From assembly GCA_964016885.1 (NCBI GenBank), contig OZ024762.1:3286001-3350000 (forward strand): a stretch of DNA of 64,000 bases, written 5' to 3'. Positions 12,422-40,462 of the stretch are shown here, piece by piece (within the stretch, counting starts at the first letter, position 1; each line of letters opens with the position of its first letter). The position numbers and the translations under genes are program-made. The notes under the pieces are model-generated. The model searched no databases. It saw nothing but the letters and a program-made list of their open reading frames with translations, and had not been told where the DNA came from. This DNA comes from Eledone cirrhosa. Lineage: Eukaryota.

Positions 12422-13341
12422 CAGCAAATTGACGGTCATGTAGAATGTTTTGCGGTATTCGTTTCTGTTCTCCACTCTCTGAGTTCAAATCCCACGAAGG
12501 TCAATTTTGCGTTTCATCCTTTCCAGGTTGATGAAAAAAAGTACCAGTCTGGTACTGGAGAGTATTCTTTTTCTGTGTCTATTTCTCACTTCCACTTCTC
12601 TGAACGAAATCTGCTGTATTCCGACCTGGAGAATTTCGAGATCTTCCAAAAGAATCTTATATAAGAGCTATATGCCAAATCACTGTCATAGCAATGTAAT
12701 CCTCACCAACACTGTTTAATGTCCATTTTCCTATCCGTGCATGGGTTAGACGGGTCATCCATGTTTTGATACATGTCTGGCCAGTTGGCCGCACCATACC
12801 TTGCTCAATTTTGAGCATTAAACTAATATATATTCCTTCCATATACTGTACTGTTTGTGTTATTTATGTTTATATATATAATTAATAATTGTAGTACATC
12901 CTTCCAACTTCTTTATTGAATTAATGAAATACAGTAATGTTTTATTAGAAATATGATGAAACATTTAAGTATTCTCTATATCTGAAATTGTTTTTTTTTT
13001 TTTTTTTTTTTTTTTTCAGAATATCAGATGACATTGGCATGGAAGAATCTTTTACACCATATACATCATCATCATCATTTAGAATCATTGAAAAGCTATA
13101 GATTTATATAAAACCTATATATATGGCTGAACTACTGTTTCAAATCTGTACCAGATTATTTTACAAAGCAATCAAATTTGGAGAAATTAACGAGAGTTTA
13201 TAGCAGGAACTTCAGATATCAACCAAGATCACAGTTGATAGAAATAGTTGGAGATGGAGGTGGAGGTGGAAATATGTTTGTGGACGAATAAAAATGAGGA
13301 CATGAAAAATATCTGTGTATTGTGGTGAGAGAAGAAAAATT

Positions 13342-14470
<1,129 letters not shown>

Positions 14471-17284: not shown

Positions 17285-17974
17285 TTTAGGGTTCCTACTA
17301 AAATCAATTGAAAATTAACATAAGATCTATGTGATAAATTATGTTACTAATGGCAAGAGACAGGAAAAGATGGAGGGTTCTGGTCCATAAGTCCATGACC
17401 CCCGACCCTCAGATGTGGGGATGGGATGAGTCGGTCATATCATATGTTGACTGGGTGCTTTTCATTATCATGGCACATTAGTGACTGGATTGGTAATGTC
17501 TTGTATAGTTGGTTGATATCTGAACAAAGCTGCTATACTACAAGCAAGCATACTCTTTCCAGTGTTTGGGAATCCTTTTAGAACCATTCGGTTCTGTCTC
17601 CATTTCTTTGCTAAGTATTTTCCAAACCATTATAACGAAGTTGATTTCGTATATGTTTTGTGTTTGAAAATATCATCAATGGAGTTTTTACTATATGATA
17701 ATACAGTTTAGGGTTATCAAAGATTTTCCGATTTATATGTTCAAATTTTGCTTCAAAGCTCATATTGTCTTTTTATACATCCACAGTCTAGGACTTTTTA
17801 TTACAGTGTATACTGGGTGCATTTTATTGTGGTACCAACACTACCACTGTACAGTGTGGGCTGAACATGGTTTATCGTGACACCAGCACTACCATTTTAC
17901 AGAGTGGGCTTGGTGCGTTTTATTATGACACCTGCTCTACCACTACAGAGTGTACTTGGTGCTTCTTTTCTATA

Positions 17975-18277
17975 TATTTCACAGTGGAAGGATCTTTCTC
18001 TAATGTGATGCACAAGATTAAGATATTACGAGAATAATTTCCCACAGATACCACAATGATTGGGGGGGGGGGGTTGTCCAGTGTTTATATTTTCTGTTTT
18101 ATCTTAATTCGCTGTTTTTGACAAAATATTACCCACATGTTTCATGCTAGGAACGTTTTTCTCAAGTGTCACTATTCATTTAAATTGTTATTAATTACTC
18201 ATACTTCTAATGAAATATTTCCCCACATTTCATATTAGAGAGGTTCTAGCATATGTGAAAAATGTTTCATGACTAAA
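17975..18277 (-). pseudogene. Decayed C2H2 zinc-finger array, part left of the EVE
   Basis: Minus-strand HCGICGKLFS and further CGK-like finger remnants running up to the viral junction. Confidence 0.7.
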
Positions 18278-18463
18278 AGCTCGCTTCCAAAGGTGCTGTA
18301 GCGCATCTCAGCAGGTTTCGTGGTTGGTTCTTCTTTACCATTGAACATCACTTGTGTAAATTATATGAGAATAGAATGAATAATTGTGATAATCACTGAT
18401 GCTAGAGGTGCCCTAGTACATTGTTCTAATCACCATCGTTAATTATCACAATATTTATCTGGG

Positions 18464-19456
18464 TCACCTTTGAAAATATTTTCCGTTATTTAATATTGTA
18501 CCGTGTTGAATACAGCTGCCGCCCCATTCGGTATTAGTTAATGGTTTTCTTAGCAGTGAATGATTTGTCCATTCATGTACGAACGTGTCTCCTTGTCTTA
18601 GTTCTTTCACCTCGTGTAGACCCCTCCAGTCGTGTAAGTGTCTCATCTTGATTTCACACTTATTCTCCACGTATGTACCTCTGCAATCTTCAATTAGTTC
18701 TGTCGGTGCCATATAGAAATATTCGTAGTTTGGGAGTAGTAGTTGGTCTATTTTAGTTGGATGTATCATTTGGAACCCGTCGTTTGGTATGTGTGACAGA
18801 CCTCTCAGATTGTTATAACCTATATATTTCCCTCTGTCTACGTATACCTGAAAGTAAGGCAACGGGTTGCTGATAAATTGATCCTCTCCCTTAGCGGCGA
18901 TCCATTCTGAACAGATAATATTCAAAATCTTGAACCCCGCTTTCTGAATCCTATGTTTCAGGTTGGTTTCCCAGTCTATAGGTTTTACCCATGATGTCAG
19001 ATAATACGGGACTAAGTAATCGGCCGAATAGCAGTACCCTCTTGACATTTTATTATCCAGACTTGCTGGTGGATTTTCGTCCCCTGTTTGTCTCAATGAA
19101 AAGAACTTGCCTGTAGCCTCGTTCATGTCTGTACTCTTTACACAGTTTTGGAACTTCCTAGTGAAAACGACAGTTCGTCTAAAGGGTCCTGTAGGCTCGG
19201 GTATGTCTGCCGCTGCGCCTTGGGCCTGACCGGTCCATCCACCTCTTCCATCAGCTCTCGCAGTTTCTTGATCCGTCTCCATCCCAGCCATAATAGCAGG
19301 CCCACCTCCGTCAACAGTATCAGACTGCACAGGTCGAAAGAAGCTATCGAGCCCCAGCGATTGCTGCTGATGCCAATAATCCGACAGGACCACTTTCGAA
19401 CGCTTCTCCGATGAATTGTTTATCTGCGTTCCAAGTTGATATGTTCCTATTTCCAT
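18464..19456 (-). CDS. Parvovirus-like major capsid protein (VP2 region), C-terminally disrupted
   Basis: 330 open codons directly downstream of the PLA2 domain. Gly-rich MAGMETDQETARADGRGGWTGQAQG is followed by the beta-strand-like FRRTVVFTRKF. Probable viral coding continues out of frame to ~18278. Confidence 0.8.
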   Translation of the reverse strand: MEIGTYQLGTQINNSSEKRSKVVLSDYWHQQQSLGLDSFFRPVQSDTVDGGGPAIMAGMETDQETARADGRGGWTGQAQGAAADIPEPTGPFRRTVVFTRKFQNCVKSTDMNEATGKFFSLRQTGDENPPASLDNKMSRGYCYSADYLVPYYLTSWVKPIDWETNLKHRIQKAGFKILNIICSEWIAAKGEDQFISNPLPYFQVYVDRGKYIGYNNLRGLSHIPNDGFQMIHPTKIDQLLLPNYEYFYMAPTELIEDCRGTYVENKCEIKMRHLHDWRGLHEVKELRQGDTFVHEWTNHSLLRKPLTNTEWGGSCIQHGTILNNGKYFQR

Positions 19457-19664
19457 ATGCTAAATCGTATACTTTAGCGGCAGTGTCTAGTTTATTTCTC
19501 GCTACCCAGTATCTCTTTTTCTCTAGATCTGTTCCCAGGCCTAGAAAATCGTGGCCTGGTACGGTATATTCAGCTGAAGTACTTGCCTTGGGTTTCTTTT
19601 TCTCTGGGAAATAATCTTGTATGGTCTCGTCTTTAGAGTTCTTCCTCTTACGCATGGGAGGCAT
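19344..19664 (-). CDS. Parvovirus VP1-unique region with phospholipase A2 domain (mutated), frameshifted relative to VP2
   Basis: MPPMRKRK (NLS-like)...YTVPGHDFLGLGTDL...NKLDTAAKVYDLAY...ADKQF aligns by eye with the consensus PGYxYLGPGNxL...DxAAxxHDxAY...ADxxF. Confidence 0.88.
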   Translation of the reverse strand: MPPMRKRKNSKDETIQDYFPEKKKPKASTSAEYTVPGHDFLGLGTDLEKKRYWVARNKLDTAAKVYDLAYGNRNISTWNADKQFIGEAFESGPVGLLASAAIAGAR

Positions 19665-19800
19665 AATGACGAGTAGTAACACGTTCGGTCTTATATAAAT
19701 TATTCTGAACAACTTCGATGGCATCGGTTGAAATTACTAGTCGGGACACCTCTACCATTATTGAAACCAATGGTCACCATTGATCATCGAGGTAGTCGTA

Positions 19801-20796
19801 CTATCCCAGTTTATTATATTTTATCAATACTATTTGGTCCTGTTCGAATTTGATAGCAACCTCCGTGTCTACTCCTTCAGCTAGTTTCTTAAAGGTTTGA
19901 AGTGTTTCTAGTGTGAAATTAGGTTCTTCGATAAGACCTATCTCCACGTTTATTAAGTTTTGAAATGGGAAGCTGCTTGTTCCTTGTATTGTGGATACGT
20001 GCGTGAACATATCAGCTATACTTTGCGCTACCATTGATTTGCCTCTATTCGGTATTCCTCTTAATACCAAGAGGTTCCTTTTAGGTTTTTTCTGTGTTAG
20101 CAACTCCCATACTGTAGTTACTAAAGTTTCTTCATGTATGTCTTGCGTTAATAGGATAGATTTAAATATTTTCAGTGATACATCCCTGTTCATGTAATTT
20201 TTGTTATTGTCGAAAAAATCCCAATTCATGTTCTCGAACTTTTCTTTGAAGCATTGGTTTAATGTTTTGAGCTTTTCACACTCTAACACCTTCTTCATCA
20301 CCGAGTCATACATAGGGTGTGATATCACCCGCATGAAATTATCATTATTTGCTCTGTGGAGCCAATGCGATTTCATATCCTGTTCGCTTCTGAATTTTTT
20401 AGATGTAAATATGTATGACAAGTAATTGAAGAGCGTTAGAGTGGTCCCTGATTTTGATTTGAATGTTGGTTCTTCTACAGTTTGTTGTTTGCTTGTCGTT
20501 GGTCTTGGTTCTGTTTTTGGTTTTGCTCTGTATTCTTGCATGCACCAATCCGAGAACATTTCGTAGGTGTCATCTACTCCTTTTATAAGCACGTACCTCG
20601 GAGGTTGGCAGAAGTAATTAGCCATACTAGACGGCAATTTTAGCCTTTGGCATTCTGGGATGTATCTCATGAGTTTCGTGGCTTTCTTATACAGACTTCT
20701 TATGTACTTTAATCTTTGGTTTTCTCCTGGTCTTTGCATGCTATGCCAGATGATGTGAAAGTGATTGAATGCATTCCACTCTTTTTTTTTGGCATA
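19801..20796 (-). CDS. Parvovirus NS1/Rep (HUH endonuclease plus SF3 helicase), truncated
   Basis: In frame upstream of the annotated ATG is EWNAFNHFHIIW (HUH), and ANYFCQPPR is motif III-like. Walker A is GIPNRGKS, Walker B is GLIEEP and B' is FKKLAEG..VAIK. Motif C is missing. Confidence 0.92.
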   Translation of the reverse strand, partial: YAKKKEWNAFNHFHIIWHSMQRPGENQRLKYIRSLYKKATKLMRYIPECQRLKLPSSMANYFCQPPRYVLIKGVDDTYEMFSDWCMQEYRAKPKTEPRPTTSKQQTVEEPTFKSKSGTTLTLFNYLSYIFTSKKFRSEQDMKSHWLHRANNDNFMRVISHPMYDSVMKKVLECEKLKTLNQCFKEKFENMNWDFFDNNKNYMNRDVSLKIFKSILLTQDIHEETLVTTVWELLTQKKPKRNLLVLRGIPNRGKSMVAQSIADMFTHVSTIQGTSSFPFQNLINVEIGLIEEPNFTLETLQTFKKLAEGVDTEVAIKFEQDQIVLIKYNKLG

Positions 20797-20799
20797 TTA

Positions 20800-22105
20800 C
20801 GTGAGTAATGTGTGTATTCTTTTGTTATGTTGAGTCATTTTATAGCCAAAAATATCCAGTGTGGATGGCTGTATTTTGTACTGTACTAAGTTACTGTTTC
20901 TGACAAAAGATTTTCTGCATAAATCACAAAAGAATAATTAATGTGTGAACAAAGCATGGATGAACTGAGAGACTGGGTATAGGAGGAATGAGATGTGATA
21001 TGAAATCCCAGTGGAGGGAAGCTGCAGTAGGGTCTCAACTCGCTGGAGCTCACGGAAGAGATGGTGGGAGAATGCTTTGTTGAAAAAAAAAATCATCCAA
21101 CCCATTTAAATGTAGAACTGCGAACATGAAATGGGGTGTACTTTTTTAAATCACTGTTCCTGACAAAATATCTCCCACATGTATCAGAAGAATTTTTCTG
21201 TACTAATTCCAGTGGAAGGAAGCTGCAGTAGAGGGAGACTTGGGATGACAAGAGTTGCTCTCAGGTTGCTGGAGCTCACAGAAGAAATGGTGGGAGAAGA
21301 CACATCCAACTTATCTAAGTGTAGAACTGAGGACGTAAAATGGGGTGTACTTGGTTAAATCATTGTTCCTAACAAAAAATCTCCCGCATATATCACAGAA
21401 TTTTTCTGAACTGTGAGTATGCATGTATTTTGTATGTTAAATAACTGCTTTTTACAACAGATTTCCCATATATATCACAAGAAACATTTGCAGCTAAATG
21501 AGTTTGCATTATATGGCTGTTTCTTACGACAGATTTCCCATATATATCACAGAAACATTTGCAGCTAAATGAGTTTGCATGTTGTTAAATCACTGCTGTA
21601 CAAAAAATTTCCCATGTACTTCATAGAAGAATTTTCCTACAATGTGAGTGTACATAGATTTTGTGCTTTTGACAAAATATTTTCTGCGTACATTACAAGA
21701 GAAGAATTTTTCTGGAGTGTGAGTACATGTATATTTTGTATTAAATCATTGCTTTTCACAAAACATTTTCCACATCAAAGATGTCTATTTTGTGTTTTGT
21801 TAAATTACTGCTTTCCACAAAATAATTTCCATATGAAAGGTGTGTATTTTGTGTTTTAAATTACTGCTTTCCACAGCAGGGGGAACAAGTTTTTTCTGCC
21901 TGTGTATTTTAAGATGCTTATTGACAAAGGTTAACCCATATATTTCACAGGAGAGGGGTTTTTTTTTTTTTTTTTTTTTATTTGTTCCCCACCCCTCACC
22001 AGTGTGGCTACGTTTGTGTCTAACAAGATTAGAATTAGCAAAATAGAATTTTCCACATATTTCTCAGTGGAAATCTTTTTCTCCAGTGAGTATTTCTCTT
22101 TATGT
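20800..22105 (-). pseudogene. Decayed C2H2 zinc-finger array, part right of the EVE
   Basis: Minus-strand CDLCRKSFVRNSNLV (~20885-20930), CDICGRFFVRNNDLT (~21352-21397) and TGEKDFH*EICGK (~22050-22090), with many stops and indels. A ~200 bp internal duplication lies at 21005-21400. Confidence 0.8.
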
Positions 22106-23185: not shown

Positions 23186-24891
23186 AGGATAATTTGGAGG
23201 GCCTCGAGATAGTTTCGAGTCTGGGTCTGGATAAGTATACCCAACCATATTACCCTAGTGAACCAAGATTCACACTTAAGGATCATAAAGTAGACTTCTT
23301 AAGTAATCCTACTGTTAGACTTATCAGTCCTTCTAAGTCTGATATAGCTATAATTAGTAAAAAAAATTCTTGACCAGATTATTCCTACCGTTAGGGACAA
23401 GGTTCATTTTAATCTATGGGGGAATACTATGGATGTTATTAATTGGTTCTCTAATATTAATAAGCTTAAGTCTAGTAGGTTTATCCAGTTTGATATCGAC
23501 GCCTATTACACGTTGATTTCACCTATCCTCCTCATTAAAGCCTTAATGATGGCCTTGCGAATGTCTAGTCTTACGCGACCCCAGATTGATGTTATACTAG
23601 CGGCCCGTAGGACTATCATCAAATTCGAGGATACACTTTGGACGCGTAAGAACACATCCAATAACTTTGACGTTACCATGGGTTCGAGTGATTCGGCGCA
23701 GGTGACTGATCTTGTTGGGCTGTACCTCTTAAACGAGCTTTATGTTAACTTTCCGCACCTTAAAGGTGGACTTTATCGTGATAATGCATTATTCGTCAAC
23801 TACTGTCGAGATGATGGATCTCACTCTCATGCCCCAGAATTCCCTGTCCCCCAGCGCCGCCCCCAGGTCCTGTCTACTGATTCCCGTATCCCTAGAGATA
23901 ACGTCAGGGTTCCAGAGCAAGAGAGCGGATATGATTTCATTGCTGGCACGGTGACAGTGGCCAGCAAATTGAGCTCTCCGGGATTTTAGAAGGGCAGAGG
24001 CTAGTACTAATAGCATTGAACATAATTGGAAGAAGTTATATGAATTTTTTTTAAATTTTAACCTTTCGATCACGATTGATAAGAACGATAGAGCAGTTAA
24101 TTTTTTAGATGTGACTTTAGACTTGGTCACTAATAATTATAAACCCTTCCACAAGCCAAATGAGACACTCTCTTGCGTTAATCCTAATTCCAACCACCCT
24201 AAATCTATGATTAGTTCTATTATTAACGGTGTATCTAATAGAATCTCCACACTCTCTAAAGATATAGGAATTTTTAATTCACATGCTGAGTACTATAATA
24301 ATGCCCTAGCTAACTCTGGTTACTCTGGTAGACTACATTATAAAGATAACAACCTAGAAACGACTCCGATTACCCATAGTAACGTGATATCCCACAATAT
24401 GGCCTTTAATGGGGGTAGAAAACAGGAATCATAGAAATCTTATAGATATATCCAAACCAAACCCTATGTATAGCAACCGCAATAGTAATTATAATAGTGT
24501 GTCTAATGGTACACATTTTGAGCTTAGTTTTAATGAACAGGATAGACGCTCTGAACGTACACCCAGTGGTAATGTTATAGCGGTTTCTACTAGTGTTAAT
24601 TCAATTGGTCCTCACATAAACCCTGATCCTATAAATAAGATACGTGATAGAAATAGTAAAGGTAAGAATAGGAGAAGGCTTAATACCTACTTTAACCCAC
24701 CCTATAACTATGATGTACTAACTAGTATCCCTAGGTCTTTCTTTTCTATTTTAGAGAAAAATTTCCCTCCTGCTAATAAATATCATAGTATCTTTAATAA
24801 GAATGTAATTAAACTCTCATTTTCTACTACCCCTAACATTAGTTCACATCTAGCTAGCACTAATAATAAGAACATTTTTGCGCCTACGTGA
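23186..24891 (+). mobile_element. Penelope-like element reverse transcriptase, truncated and frameshifted
   Basis: TLKDHK..PTVRLISPSKS, VINWF..FIQFDIDAYY, DVTMGS.D.AQVTDLVGLYLL, GLYRDNAL, VNFLDVTLDL, SNHP and YFNPPYN motifs. No GIY-YIG domain seen. Confidence 0.88.
23805..23975 (-). mobile_element. LINE 3' fragment inserted antisense into the Penelope RT
   Basis: AQFAGHCHRASNEIISALLLWNP...RDTGISRQDLGAALGDREFW, a GC-richer block. Related 3' ends lie at 29790-30120 and 30500-30780. Confidence 0.7.
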
Positions 24892-31335: not shown

Positions 31336-31466
31336 ATAAATAGTTCCGTATGAGCAAGATTATCTCAACTGGAAAAATGGATGTTAAACAGTGATTATAT
31401 CAGAAGAAATATATTTTGGGGGGAAAGATTTTAAAAACACGTCTATGTTGTAATGAGAGAAGCAAC

Positions 31467-32579
31467 ATGGAAAATGAATTACATGGAAACACAGTTAAAT
31501 TACCTGCACAGTCTAGAAGGATTGACTTTCCTGATATGTTAAAATATGTAGAAAAATCCATGTACCACTGTGATATTTGTAAAAAATCTTTCTCTCTAAA
31601 AAGTGACTTAACAACACACAAACACAGTCATACAGGAGAAAAACCTCACCCTTGTAATGTCTGTAATAAATCATTCTCTAAACTAAGTCAGTTATCATAT
31701 CACATACGTATTCATACTGGAGAGAAACCATATCACTGTGATATCTGTGATAAATCATTCTCTGAAGGAACTGTCTTAACTAAACACAAACGTGTTCATA
31801 CTGGAGAGAAACCATATCATTGTGATGTCTGTGGTAAATCATTTTCCCAAACAGGTCATTTGGCTACTCACAAACACATTCACACAGGTGAGAAACCTTA
31901 TGGTTGTGATATCTGTGGTAAAGCCTTTTCTATTAATAGTTACTTAACTTCTCACAAACGCATTCATACAGGAGAGAAACCATATCACTGTAACATCTGT
32001 GGTAAAACATTCTCTCGAAATGGTCACTTAACTATTCACAAACGCATTCATTCTGGAGAGAAACCGTATCACTGTGATATCTGTGGTAAATCATTCTCTG
32101 TAGGAACTGTCTTAACTAGACACAAACGTACTCATACAGGAGAGAAACCATATCACTGTGATGTCTGTGGTAAAACATTCTCTGAAGGAAGTCAATTAAC
32201 TTCTCACAAACGTACTCATACAGGAGAGAAGCCATTTCACTGTGACGTTTGTGGTAAATCATTCTCGGTTGCAAGTAGTTTAACTACTCACACACGGATT
32301 CACACGGGGGAGAAACCATACCATTGTGTTATCTGTGGTAAATCATTCTCTATTACTAGTCGTTTAACTACTCACATACGTATTCACACTGGAGAGAAAC
32401 CGTATTACTGTGATCTCTGTGGTAAATCATTCTACCAAACAAGTGACTTAACTAAACACAAACGCATTCATACAGGCAAGAAGCCATATCACTGTGATAT
32501 CTGTGGTAAATCTTTCTATCAAACAAGTAACTTAACTAAACACAAACGTGTTCATACAGGAGAGAAGCCATATCACTGA
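31467..32579 (+). CDS. C2H2 zinc-finger protein, 12 tandem fingers
   Basis: 12 canonical fingers with TGEKP linkers. First ATG at 31467 (MENELHGN...), with an N-terminal leader homologous to ZNF gene 1. Confidence 0.92.
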
Positions 32580-35859: not shown

Positions 35860-36520
35860 GCGGCATTCACCCTGGGTCGGTTGAGCCAGCTCCGTCCAAC
35901 GAATTTACCATATCCCGAATGAAGGCCAACCAATCAGCCATTCGTGGTTCCATTGCCAAACCCCACACAGCCGTGGGCCTAAGATCAACTTAGCGTCTTG
36001 CCTCACCGTCCTAAGCCACGGTTTCAGTTGGCCTCCACAACATTTCTTCCATCTCAACGGAGGAGATGGATCAATGGCTTCGCGGATGAAGTCGTCCGGT
36101 TGTCGACAGAGAGCATGACCAAGCCAGCGAAGACACCTCGTGAGAAGAGCTTACTGGAGGGAGGAGATTTTGCAGCATGCACAGATTGTAGAATTCGAGA
36201 TGAATAGTTGCCAGCAAACACGAAGGATGCAGCGTAAACAATGATGGTTGAACACTTCGAGTTTGCGCATGTCCTCTGCTCATTGGCCAGGTTTTGCAGC
36301 CGTATAGCAGGATTGTTCGGACAAGGGCTTGGTAGATCCGAATTTCATGTCTGCTCCACAGCCAAGCGCGTAGACGACAGAAGGCGAGCGTTACCAATGC
36401 AACCATTTATATCCTCAACTCCTTGGCCTGTTGCAGTGACTATAGAACCTAGGGACTTAAAGCGATCAACCTCTTCAAGGGTTTCTCCGTCGAGGACAAT
36501 CGGTTGTTTTTCAGCGGGTA
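35860..36520 (-). mobile_element. RTE-type LINE 3' fragment
   Basis: IVLDGETLEEVDRFKSLGSIV, RIYQALVRTILLYGCKTW; ends in a (CA)n tail. Confidence 0.8.
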
Positions 36521-36524
36521 AGAA

Positions 36525-37420
36525 ACCTGTCAGTAAAGTCAAGGTAGGAATGGAGTTTAGTGAGGAATTCCAGATACAAATAGAAGTACATCAAGGTTCA
36601 GTCCTCAGCCCGCTCTTGTTTATTATAGTCCTCCAAGCCATAACAGAGGAGTTTAAGACTGGCTGTCCATGGGAACTTCTCTATGCTGACAATCTGGTTC
36701 TTATAGCAGAATCAGTAGAGGAGCTAGAGAATAAATTCTGGCTATGGAAACAGCAGTTGGAAGCAAGAGGACTGAGAGTGAACCTAGCTAAGACAAAAGT
36801 GTTGATGAGTAGAAAAGAGGACAAAACTGATTCCGTCAGGGAAATGCCCATGTTTGATATGCAGAAAAGGAACTGGCATAAATTCTATAAAATGCACACA
36901 ATGCAGATCCTGGGTACACAAGAGATGTAGTGGGATAGCAGGCAAACTAACAGGTAGGGAGAAATACATATGCAGTAGATGTACAGGGAAATTAGACAGT
37001 AGAAGTCACATTGATAGACACATTTTCAAATGCAGGCAGGTGCTATAGAAGTGGTGGACAGCTTCTGGTACCTAGGAGATCAGATTAGCATGGGAGGGGG
37101 GGGGTTCCGAGGCCATAGTATCTAGAATAATACGTGAACGGCAAAGCATAAATAAACTAAGTGAGAAATTAGGAATAAGAGGGATCAGATGCTGTTTACT
37201 TGAGAGAAGACTACGTTGGTATGGCCATGTGATGCGCATGAAAGACGACAGCTGTAGAAAAAAGTGCAGGGCGATCAAAAGTGATGGTAGTTATGGGTAG
37301 ATAGACCCAGAAAAACCTGGGACGATCTGATAAATTCCGATCTTACACACTTGCACCTCTCTAAGACAATGTCACTGGACCGAGATCTTTGGCGCTACGT
37401 AGTAATACAGAAGACCTGCC
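36525..37420 (+). mobile_element. RTE-clade LINE RT fragment with Cys-rich insertion
   Basis: VHQGSVLSPLLFIIV, ELLYADNLVL, GLRVNLAKTKV, CRKGTGINSIKCTQCRSWVHKRCSG, RRLRWYGHVMRM, RPRKTW. Confidence 0.88.
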
Positions 37421-39606: not shown

Positions 39607-40462
39607 CGAGGTGTGTCAGAAAAATTCCAGGACTGATGTCACAAAAGATTTATTTCAAACCCAAACTTCACACTACGAGTTTTCTCCGTCAAAGTAATCC
39701 CCCTGGAGTATGTAACTGTAATCTTAGCTCTCTGCAGCGATCAAACTTTTTTCTTTCATAATTTTATATACATGTCCTCTGTTTCAGGTCATCAAGCAAT
39801 GAGCACAGAGCAACGAACAAACTTGAAAACTCCGTCAGAAGCACTGGGATTGCTGCAGCAAGTGTATGGAGATGAGACGATGTCACGCTCACGTGTTTTT
39901 GAGTGGTGCAAGAGGTTTAAAGAAGGACGCGAGGACGTGGAAGATGACCCCAGGAGCGGAAGGCCCTCAACAACCAGGACTGAGGTCAACGTTGAGCGCG
40001 TTAGGCAGATGGTGCGTAGCGATCGTCGGCTGACTGTTCGACTGATGGCAAATGAACTGGGTATGAATCGGGACAGCGTCTGGAAGATTCTCACTGAAGA
40101 TTTGGACATGCGGAAAGTCTGCGCGAAGATGGTGCCAAAACTGCTGAACGATGACCAGAAGAGTCGACGCATGCAAGTGTGCCAGGATATCCTCGAGTGT
40201 CTAGAAACTGAACCAGACTTGCTAGGGGCAGTCATCACCGATGATGAGTCATGGATCTTCGAGTACGACCTGGAGGGGACCCGTTTTGAAGACGTGGACG
40301 ACATCAAAAAGGCCGTGACGACGGAACTGTGGAGGATCCCGGAAGAATCCTTCCAGGAGTGCATGCAAGCATAGCAGAAAAGGATGGAAAAGTGCATTAG
40401 ACTCCAGGGGGATTACTTTGAAGGAGAAAACTCTTAGTGTGAAGTTTGGGTTTGAAATAAAA
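39607..40462 (+). mobile_element. Mariner transposon with internally deleted transposase
   Basis: TA-CGAGGTGTGTCAG left end; 39650-39710 is inverted at 40400-40460. The ORF has an HTH, DDPRSGRPST, MVPKLL and ITDDESW, and lacks the middle of the DD34D domain. Confidence 0.9.

Follow-up and report, generated by a model that had tools for sequence, protein, structure and literature searches.

The window (the whole stretch of 64,000 nucleotides that was analysed) belongs to contig C23 in a genome of 3.0 Gb. The viral pieces and the host sequences that surround them are the following:

20798..22090, minus strand: relic of a decayed C2H2 zinc-finger array, host flank (nhmmer with the host ZNF unit model, best E=1e-11)
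19828..20797, minus strand: type-A NS (Rep) fragment truncated at both ends, with HUH, Tyr, Walker A and Walker B motifs (Pfam Parvo_NS1, E=1.3e-10)
19690..19827, minus strand: inner arm of a type-B left terminal hairpin and a TATA box (similarity to the palindrome at C2)
19359..19664, minus strand: N-terminus of a type-B VP, with a basic stretch and a degenerate PLA2, ending in a frameshift (residues 1-90 of 614 of the paralog, 56%)
18462..19357, minus strand: type-B capsid core, cut short before the last predicted jelly-roll strands (residues 96-391 of 614, 63%)
18339..18434, minus strand: remnant of a type-B right-end subterminal region (local alignment to the C12 type-B right end)
18245..18318, minus strand: scrap of Ty3/gypsy pol (RNase H region) of 74 bases at the 3' joint (83-91% to a high-copy element)
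17966..18172, minus strand: decayed C2H2 zinc-finger relic, host flank (nhmmer E=2.6e-9 and 2.5e-8)
17501..17763, minus strand: older, more decayed and frameshifted type-A-like NS fragment (tblastn, 47-53% to NS-A, E=5e-9)

The four NS motifs, which an earlier note on this DNA had read on the minus strand, are indeed carried by an open frame of 331 codons at 19801-20796, with HUH at 20746-20763, Walker A at 20035-20058 and Walker B at 19921-19932. The fragment corresponds to residues 73-392 of a paralog of 537 residues (73% identity) and is placed in the NS-A clade of an SF3 helicase tree with a support of 0.996. Parvo_NS1 is recognized in the window (1.3e-10), in NS-A (5.6e-18) and in NS-B (1e-16). 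The HUH and Tyr motifs could be aligned, so that the association of an HUH endonuclease with an SF3 helicase, characteristic of NS1, is found. Compared with the PDB, the NS profile finds AAV Rep and a parvoviral NS1 at E 1e-14 to 1e-16, with papillomavirus E1 ranking lower; the best matches are thus parvoviral and not other SF3 proteins, in line with the earlier assignment. Helicase motif C is absent only from the window NS.

The NS fragment breaks off in the middle of the helicase, exactly where the type-B hairpin begins, and joins straight into the tip of this hairpin with no host DNA between. The 164 bases that separate the NS break from the VP start (19664) hold half a hairpin and a TATA box, features that the earlier note does not list. 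Positions 19707-19824 display 80.5% identity to the loop and inner arm of the 138-nt palindrome that precedes VP-B at C2. Contrary to the full hairpins, the remnant does not fold significantly (z -1.2).

The VP-B piece, frameshifted near 19358, represents residues 1-391 of 614. The basic start, the Gly-rich stretch and about 295 capsid codons downstream of the PLA2-like stretch were found as described earlier, whereas the PLA2 motif itself is degenerate, its E value of 0.003 for PF08398 lying under the gathering cut-off. This cut-off is passed by VP-A (7.7e-9) and by VP-B paralogs (3.6e-8 and, for the C19 copy, 6.6e-10). A PLA2 domain is common in the N-terminus of parvoviral VP without being universal. 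By itself, the window capsid frame has no sequence match in the PDB and no capsid match in Pfam; the capsid profile matches AAV VP1 and the PmMDV capsid. The structure of a VP-B paralog was predicted with modest scores (pLDDT 55, pTM 0.54), and an earlier VP-A prediction from seven sequences (pLDDT 35) was not used. In a wide search of the VP-B paralog model with VIA-align, ranks 1-20 were all occupied by parvoviral capsids (Z 15.1-9.6), the next family having a Z of 6.5, and the top match gave an rmsd of 5.0 over 260 residues. According to this model, the capsid fold is the parvoviral single jelly roll that had been expected, and two more strands are placed beyond the point where the window VP is truncated.

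Deletion has removed the remainder of VP together with the whole of NS-B. The right-end remnant was detected with an alignment score of 78, against a maximum of 37 among 300 shuffles, with a clear match to one of the six type-B right ends tested. Because this remnant follows the truncated VP, we consider the B piece as an internally deleted genome that retains both ends. Next to it, the 74-base scrap matches a high-copy element whose surroundings look like gypsy pol. Zinc-finger sequence is present on both sides as formerly proposed (nhmmer E=1e-11 and 3e-9), but the interval 18245-18460 is neither capsid nor ZNF. The older NS fragment at 17501-17763, overlooked when a single NS gene was described, carries its own Walker A at 17552-17575 and has no close DNA match elsewhere in the host genome. 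The nearest paralogs of the window NS and VP are found at unrelated loci (C18 and C12, respectively).

Taken as a whole, the locus is, with good confidence, a patchwork in which broken parts of two distinct parvovirus-like genomes are integrated in the chromosome. Both genes are broken, and the copy is predicted to yield neither a working helicase nor a capsid: the NS frame has the length of about 330 codons claimed for it, but NS and VP are only fragments and VP is frameshifted. An NS-ZNF fusion gene was ruled out, the flanking ZNF being decayed and a stop preceding the NS frame.

Host junctions and alleles

Overlapping contigs of the runs X1 and X2 (sample S1) cross the junctions with the host on both sides as well as the NS/VP joint inside, at a depth of about 9-10, the same as in the flanks; no single contig covers the whole stretch. 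The run X4 (sample S2) also bridges the junctions, with six substitutions and two indels within the element, and its coverage of insert and flanks is continuous from 18121 to 21945. The 3' junction is bridged by contigs 17885-18587 (X1, X2) and 18121-18805 (X4), and the junction with the flank 20798..22090 by contigs in all three runs. In X5 (sample S3, from another study), one of the X4 indels is seen in 10 of 18 reads. Since contigs bridge the junctions and X5 has an X4 indel, the insertion is chromosomal with at least two alleles. The independent support is that of X4 and X5, because X1-X3 may come from the assembly's own sample. Host-virus junctions are thus present in reads and one allele is common to separate individuals, which confirms the endogenous status. 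The claim that the sequence is integrated and not a contaminant holds, contigs of two samples bridging both junctions at flank-like depth. No RNA run is listed among the sequencing runs matching the window.

Concerning the age of the insertion, decay at conserved columns reaches at most about 1% per replacement site in the window NS and at most about 3.5% in the window VP, and up to 12% in other copies; these figures are upper bounds because viral divergence is included. The low values agree with a fairly young insertion, as had been suggested, but it has existed long enough for two alleles to be present, one of which recurs in an individual from another study.

The host ZNF unit model finds no match with nhmmer in a viral control stretch, unlike in both flanks. 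Zinc-finger DNA as a preferred target was ruled out, a ZNF match being found at only 2 of 49 other stretches.

Related copies, gene order and expression

The genome was searched with four proteins, giving 58, 28, 75 and 70 matches. After merging of split matches, removal of NS-A/NS-B cross-matches and manual addition of the older window NS fragment, 139 of 231 rows were kept. They fall into at least 71 clusters, spread over 26 contigs, so that the element is not a lone insertion. The copies belong to two lineages, A and B, whose NS are about 25-26% identical and whose VP are about 24% identical. NS-A and NS-B form separate supported clades in the SF3 tree, from which 15 of 172 sequences with short helicase matches were left out; midpoint-rooted and built without ICTV references, this tree gives two separate clades and not a placement. 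Each type carries both NS and VP. Both types occur together in 8 of the 71 clusters, the other 63 containing a single type, and in seven of these eight mixed clusters all matches are on one strand. Protein identity among copies ranges from 40 to 100%, with conserved positions largely intact. Seven copies on C5, C10, C14 and C998 are 98.4-99.96% identical with differing flanks and represent a recent wave. The X1 depth on this family is 10-17, compared with 9-10 at the window, which is below that of seven fixed copies, contig depth not being equivalent to copy number; the seven copies may be hemizygous, mosaic or absent from the X1 sample.

Gene order was deduced from 40 adjacencies, defined as same-strand neighbours less than 1.2 kb apart. 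VP precedes NS in 29 of them (21 VP-A>NS-A and 8 VP-B>NS-B). Because 5 of the 21 type-A pairs are near-identical copies, these amount to about 17 independent pairs. The cognate order NS>VP is represented by three adjacencies and mixed pairs by eight, all within patchwork clusters. The pairing NS-A>VP-B is found once, in the window. The monosense NS1-then-VP layout of a single virus must consequently be abandoned: NS and VP derive from two viruses, and the native order is VP then NS.

Left hairpins precede VP in three copies, with z values of -16.9 (A), -14.5 and -18.4 (B) from 200 shuffles, none of which reached the observed value. Palindromes are found at the right ends, after NS, and head-to-head and tail-to-tail dimers at C10 and C998, which we take to resemble rolling-hairpin intermediates. 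The type-A span is about 4.0 kb from coordinates, with the VP-A stop 39 bases upstream of the NS acceptor. As the termini lie outside the VP-NS pair and the VP-A stop falls so close to the acceptor, concatemers of an ordinary genome are excluded. No terminal sequence common to the A and B ends was found. From these paralogs, we conclude with the same good confidence as for the patchwork itself that both parent viruses had genomes of about 4 kb, hairpin-ended, in which the capsid gene precedes NS on the same strand. No relatives were found in viral and metagenome contig collections, and the order was read from integrated copies.

In type A, an open leader of 18 codons is located 61 or 64 bases upstream of the VP ATG in all 15 copies with an alignable VP start, and is directly followed by a GTRAG donor in 13 of them. 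A pyrimidine tract and an in-phase YAG acceptor precede NS in 13 of the 14 copies with an alignable NS start. Variation is highest at third codon positions both in the leader (0.44 vs 0.31 and 0.22) and after the acceptor (0.67 vs 0.41 and 0.25). An intron spanning the whole capsid gene had been predicted on this basis before the runs were examined. On the C10 copy, X4 contains a GT..AG joint that skips 1,618 bases at a depth of 18, whose ends correspond exactly to the predicted sites out of about 14,600 possible GT/AG pairs; the joint comes from one contig, with 30 letters on the shorter side, and is absent from X1. The kind of run is not on record, and X4 is probably RNA, given its 88 million letters and its uneven depth. 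The X4 depth on the C10 copy is about 23 over VP and about 51 over NS, as expected from a mixture of spliced and unspliced RNA. That the joint stems from a DNA copy lacking the intron was ruled out, none being present in the assembly among the seven leaders and five NS starts of the same family. The type-A VP reading frame thus likely sits within a predicted NS intron, and from the X4 joint the near-identical type-A family appears to be transcribed and spliced.

In type B, an ATG belonging to NS lies a short way downstream of the VP stop, and in three copies a TATA-like box is located between the two. Both features suggest an internal start, and type-B NS likely begins from this ATG past the capsid stop.

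Origin of the patchwork and comparison with known systems

The arrangement in the window can be explained by a truncated type-A Rep joined to what an internal deletion has left of a type-B genome (left hairpin, partial capsid gene and right end), pieces that were likely stitched into the decayed zinc-finger relic by repair of a germ-line DNA break. The B piece includes untranscribed hairpin DNA and so would have been captured from DNA, probably by end joining; A and B may have arrived in one event or in turn. Both viruses likely replicate by rolling hairpin, to judge from the HUH/SF3 Rep, the hairpins and the palindromic dimers. Type A would use one left promoter, from which unspliced RNA would give the capsid and RNA with the leader spliced over the entire capsid gene would give NS. 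Type B would express NS from the ATG that follows the capsid stop.

A host trap similar to a piRNA cluster, gathering viral pieces serially and transcribing them for defence, is compatible with this two-virus anatomy, and we retain it as a possible but not probable origin. The older NS fragment lies 700 bases off on the same strand, seven of the eight mixed clusters have their matches on one strand, and X4, if it is RNA, runs continuously over insert and flanks. However, NS-A and the B hairpin abut with no host DNA between, and the co-orientation could come from co-integration or local duplication. A spread without infection, with A and B copying themselves within the genome as capsid-bearing transposons driven by Rep, would account for the seven leader/VP-A copies of 99-100% identity found on four scaffolds with different flanks and for a family that appears transcribed and spliced. 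It is rather improbable: insert ends are ragged and often within hairpins, with inversions, deletions and dimers and no defined ends; the copies diverge down to 40% protein identity with their conserved positions largely intact; and capsid relatives are found on contigs of 3.8-4.5 kb, the size of a free genome.

The patchwork reading also has to be weighed against a single virus, either a usual monosense parvovirus with NS before VP or a naturally arising recombinant of A and B, integrated and then decayed. The local order on one strand, with 164 bases separating the two genes, fits such a virus, and a distant relative, P0118, has the ordinary NS-then-VP order. With a pairing seen once in 40 adjacencies, an NS cut mid-helicase exactly at the type-B hairpin and nearest paralogs at unrelated loci, this origin is very unlikely. 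The same low probability applies to A and B as segments of one bipartite virus, or as helper and satellite, in the manner of the Acheta domesticus segmented densovirus: eight clusters holding both types are far above chance in 3 Gb, but each type has its own Rep and capsid, their ends share no sequence that we could find and most clusters contain only one type. Contamination by viral DNA, or a chimera made during assembly, could be argued from the possibility that the runs matching best come from the assembly's own sample, and from the fact that the whole stretch is not within any single contig. This origin can be set aside almost entirely: X1 and X2 bridge the junctions on both sides and the internal joint at a depth like that of the flanks, X4 bridges with its own alleles and X5 shares one indel.

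A broader proposal can be made, to which we give an even chance: cephalopods would host undescribed, subfamily-level, capsid-first parvoviruses in which the capsid gene is a Rep intron, with at least two lineages, more than 70 germ-line invasions in one octopod, one family still transcribed and spliced, and pieces kept in strand-biased defence clusters.

In ordinary parvoviruses, Rep is made first and then switches on the downstream capsid promoter. A reversed order, in which one promoter and one splice choose between capsid and Rep, would solve the early/late switch in another way, and capsid-first lineages would widen the definition of the family. The integrated copies retain terminal hairpins, usually lost from metagenomic contigs, and supply primers for finding a living cephalopod virus. 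Their gradation from 99.9% identical to heavily decayed insertions could serve to study the germ-line capture, and perhaps the silencing, of DNA viruses in molluscs. The window copy is a dead fragment, and its worth is to have exposed the family.

Types A and B resemble the Parvoviridae (dependo-, erythro-, chaphama- and densoviruses) and the endogenous elements of this family by the HUH and SF3 Rep, the capsid with PLA2 and a single jelly roll, the size of about 4 kb and the hairpin telomeres, which in this family bound a genome of 4-6 kb. Distinct NS-left and VP-right cassettes, described for all parvoviruses in section 1.1.1 of PMC11357303, are not found: in A and B, VP precedes NS on the same strand, and the type-A VP lies within the predicted NS intron. 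Because this gene-order feature fails, the elements were filed as parvovirus-like and not as formal members. A bipartite organization of the AdSDV type, with NS and VP on separate segments, is not observed either, A and B each carrying both.

Concerning the capsid core alone, the best PDB sequence match is PmMDV (Penaeus monodon metallodensovirus, Metalloincertoparvovirus; E=1.2e-8), and VP-A relatives give weak matches to IHHNV_capsid. Structures of the PmMDV and IHHNV type reach Z 11.9-12.0, against 15.1 for the top match. Capsids of this type are described without PLA2 in the part of PMC11357303 consulted, whereas types A and B have one. The nearest named capsid relative is the Octopus vulgaris "capsid" CAI9722213.1 with its neighbours (38% to VP-A), a bare automatic name. 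Together with the genome size and the style of the zinc-finger arrays, this relative makes a cephalopod host, presumably an octopod, plausible, as the earlier note had proposed for a cephalopod. The nearest named NS relatives, among 20 relatives looked up, are the bird-swab "Parvoviridae sp." QTE03882.1 and QTZ83199.1 (26-35% over 170-300 residues). Placement in a recognised parvovirus genus would call for NS1 identity to a member of at least 35-40% over more than 80% of the length; three named NS relatives display 24-35% identity over partial length, in a comparison without an ICTV reference set. The lineage is divergent, as the earlier note held, and unclassified, with named relatives at 26-35% over part of NS.

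Parvovirus-related sequences have been reported in molluscs (PMC5013282), in a text where, as far as it was consulted, the word "cephalopod" does not occur. The capsid-first order has a precedent in two 7-kb genomes from goose cloacal swabs, MT138329 and MT138334, in which the structural ORF is upstream of the non-structural ORF (PMC9001828). These genomes of 7.2 and 7.5 kb have an extra ORF and an unknown host, and can be compared with A and B by description only, neither termini nor splicing being described in the portion of that text consulted. No capsid-first group appears in the consulted parts of PMC9896142 nor in those of the text of 10.1101/2024.03.25.586562, whose supplementary genome maps may hold some. 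A literature search that left subscription journals mostly outside its reach found no paper on parvovirus insertions in cephalopods or on a capsid gene within an NS intron. Compared with these known systems, the two capsid-first, hairpin-ended lineages, the type-A design with the capsid gene as an intron and the scale of the invasion are new.

Copies and clusters of the two virus types in the host genome

The closest paralog of the NS (Rep) gene in the window is the locus L067/L002 of the host assembly G000 (C18:15078076-15080520), with 84% identity at the DNA level. This paralog lies downstream of a Ty3/gypsy pol and in frame with it. Similar gypsy sequence was found, as a raw count, in 4 of 49 other stretches retrieved from the genome and in the window. 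Seven near-identical type-A copies, among which inversions and dimers are present, are carried by the contigs C5, C10, C14 and C998 (L030-L035, L057). The depth of reads from the public run X1 on this set is lower than that predicted from the copy number.

Eight clusters contain both types A and B. They include the window and the following regions of G000:

C2: 345.36-345.40 Mb
C12: 9.07-9.09 Mb
C25: 7.43-7.46 Mb
C841
C11

In seven of the eight, all matches are on the same strand, despite pieces that differ in type and divergence. These co-stranded mixed clusters could possibly represent piRNA-cluster-like traps.

Host elements and read coverage around the insert

The following host features were located in the window:

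13306-14112, + strand: open C2H2 zinc-finger array (Pfam)
17349-17440, + strand: short 3' piece from a LINE-like repeat present in high copy number
23354-24891, + strand: Penelope-like RT, recognised by eye, without Pfam match
31395-32579, + strand: open C2H2 zinc-finger array (Pfam)
36238-36930, + strand: RT fragment (RVT_1, E=1.5e-11)
39637-40374, + strand: mariner-type transposase fragment

The two open arrays are on the strand opposite to the decayed zinc-finger relic surrounding the insert. Coverage by the public run X4, possibly RNA, is unbroken from 18121 to 21945, including the insert and both flanks, with a depth of 4-10. If X4 is RNA, this suggests read-through transcription over the insert and its flanks.

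Distant relatives and a candidate further lineage

The database proteins P0118 and P0096 belong to a distant NS clade. P0118 is a single called ORF composed of NS and a capsid-like core, without the phospholipase domain PLA2, and P0096 displays a similar NS, embedded within retrotransposon RT sequence. In the host genome, the locus L075 (G000:C20:12530251-12530895) is a capsid-like match in a frame of 419 codons, with 22% identity to the type-A capsid protein (VP-A), and perhaps represents a third lineage.
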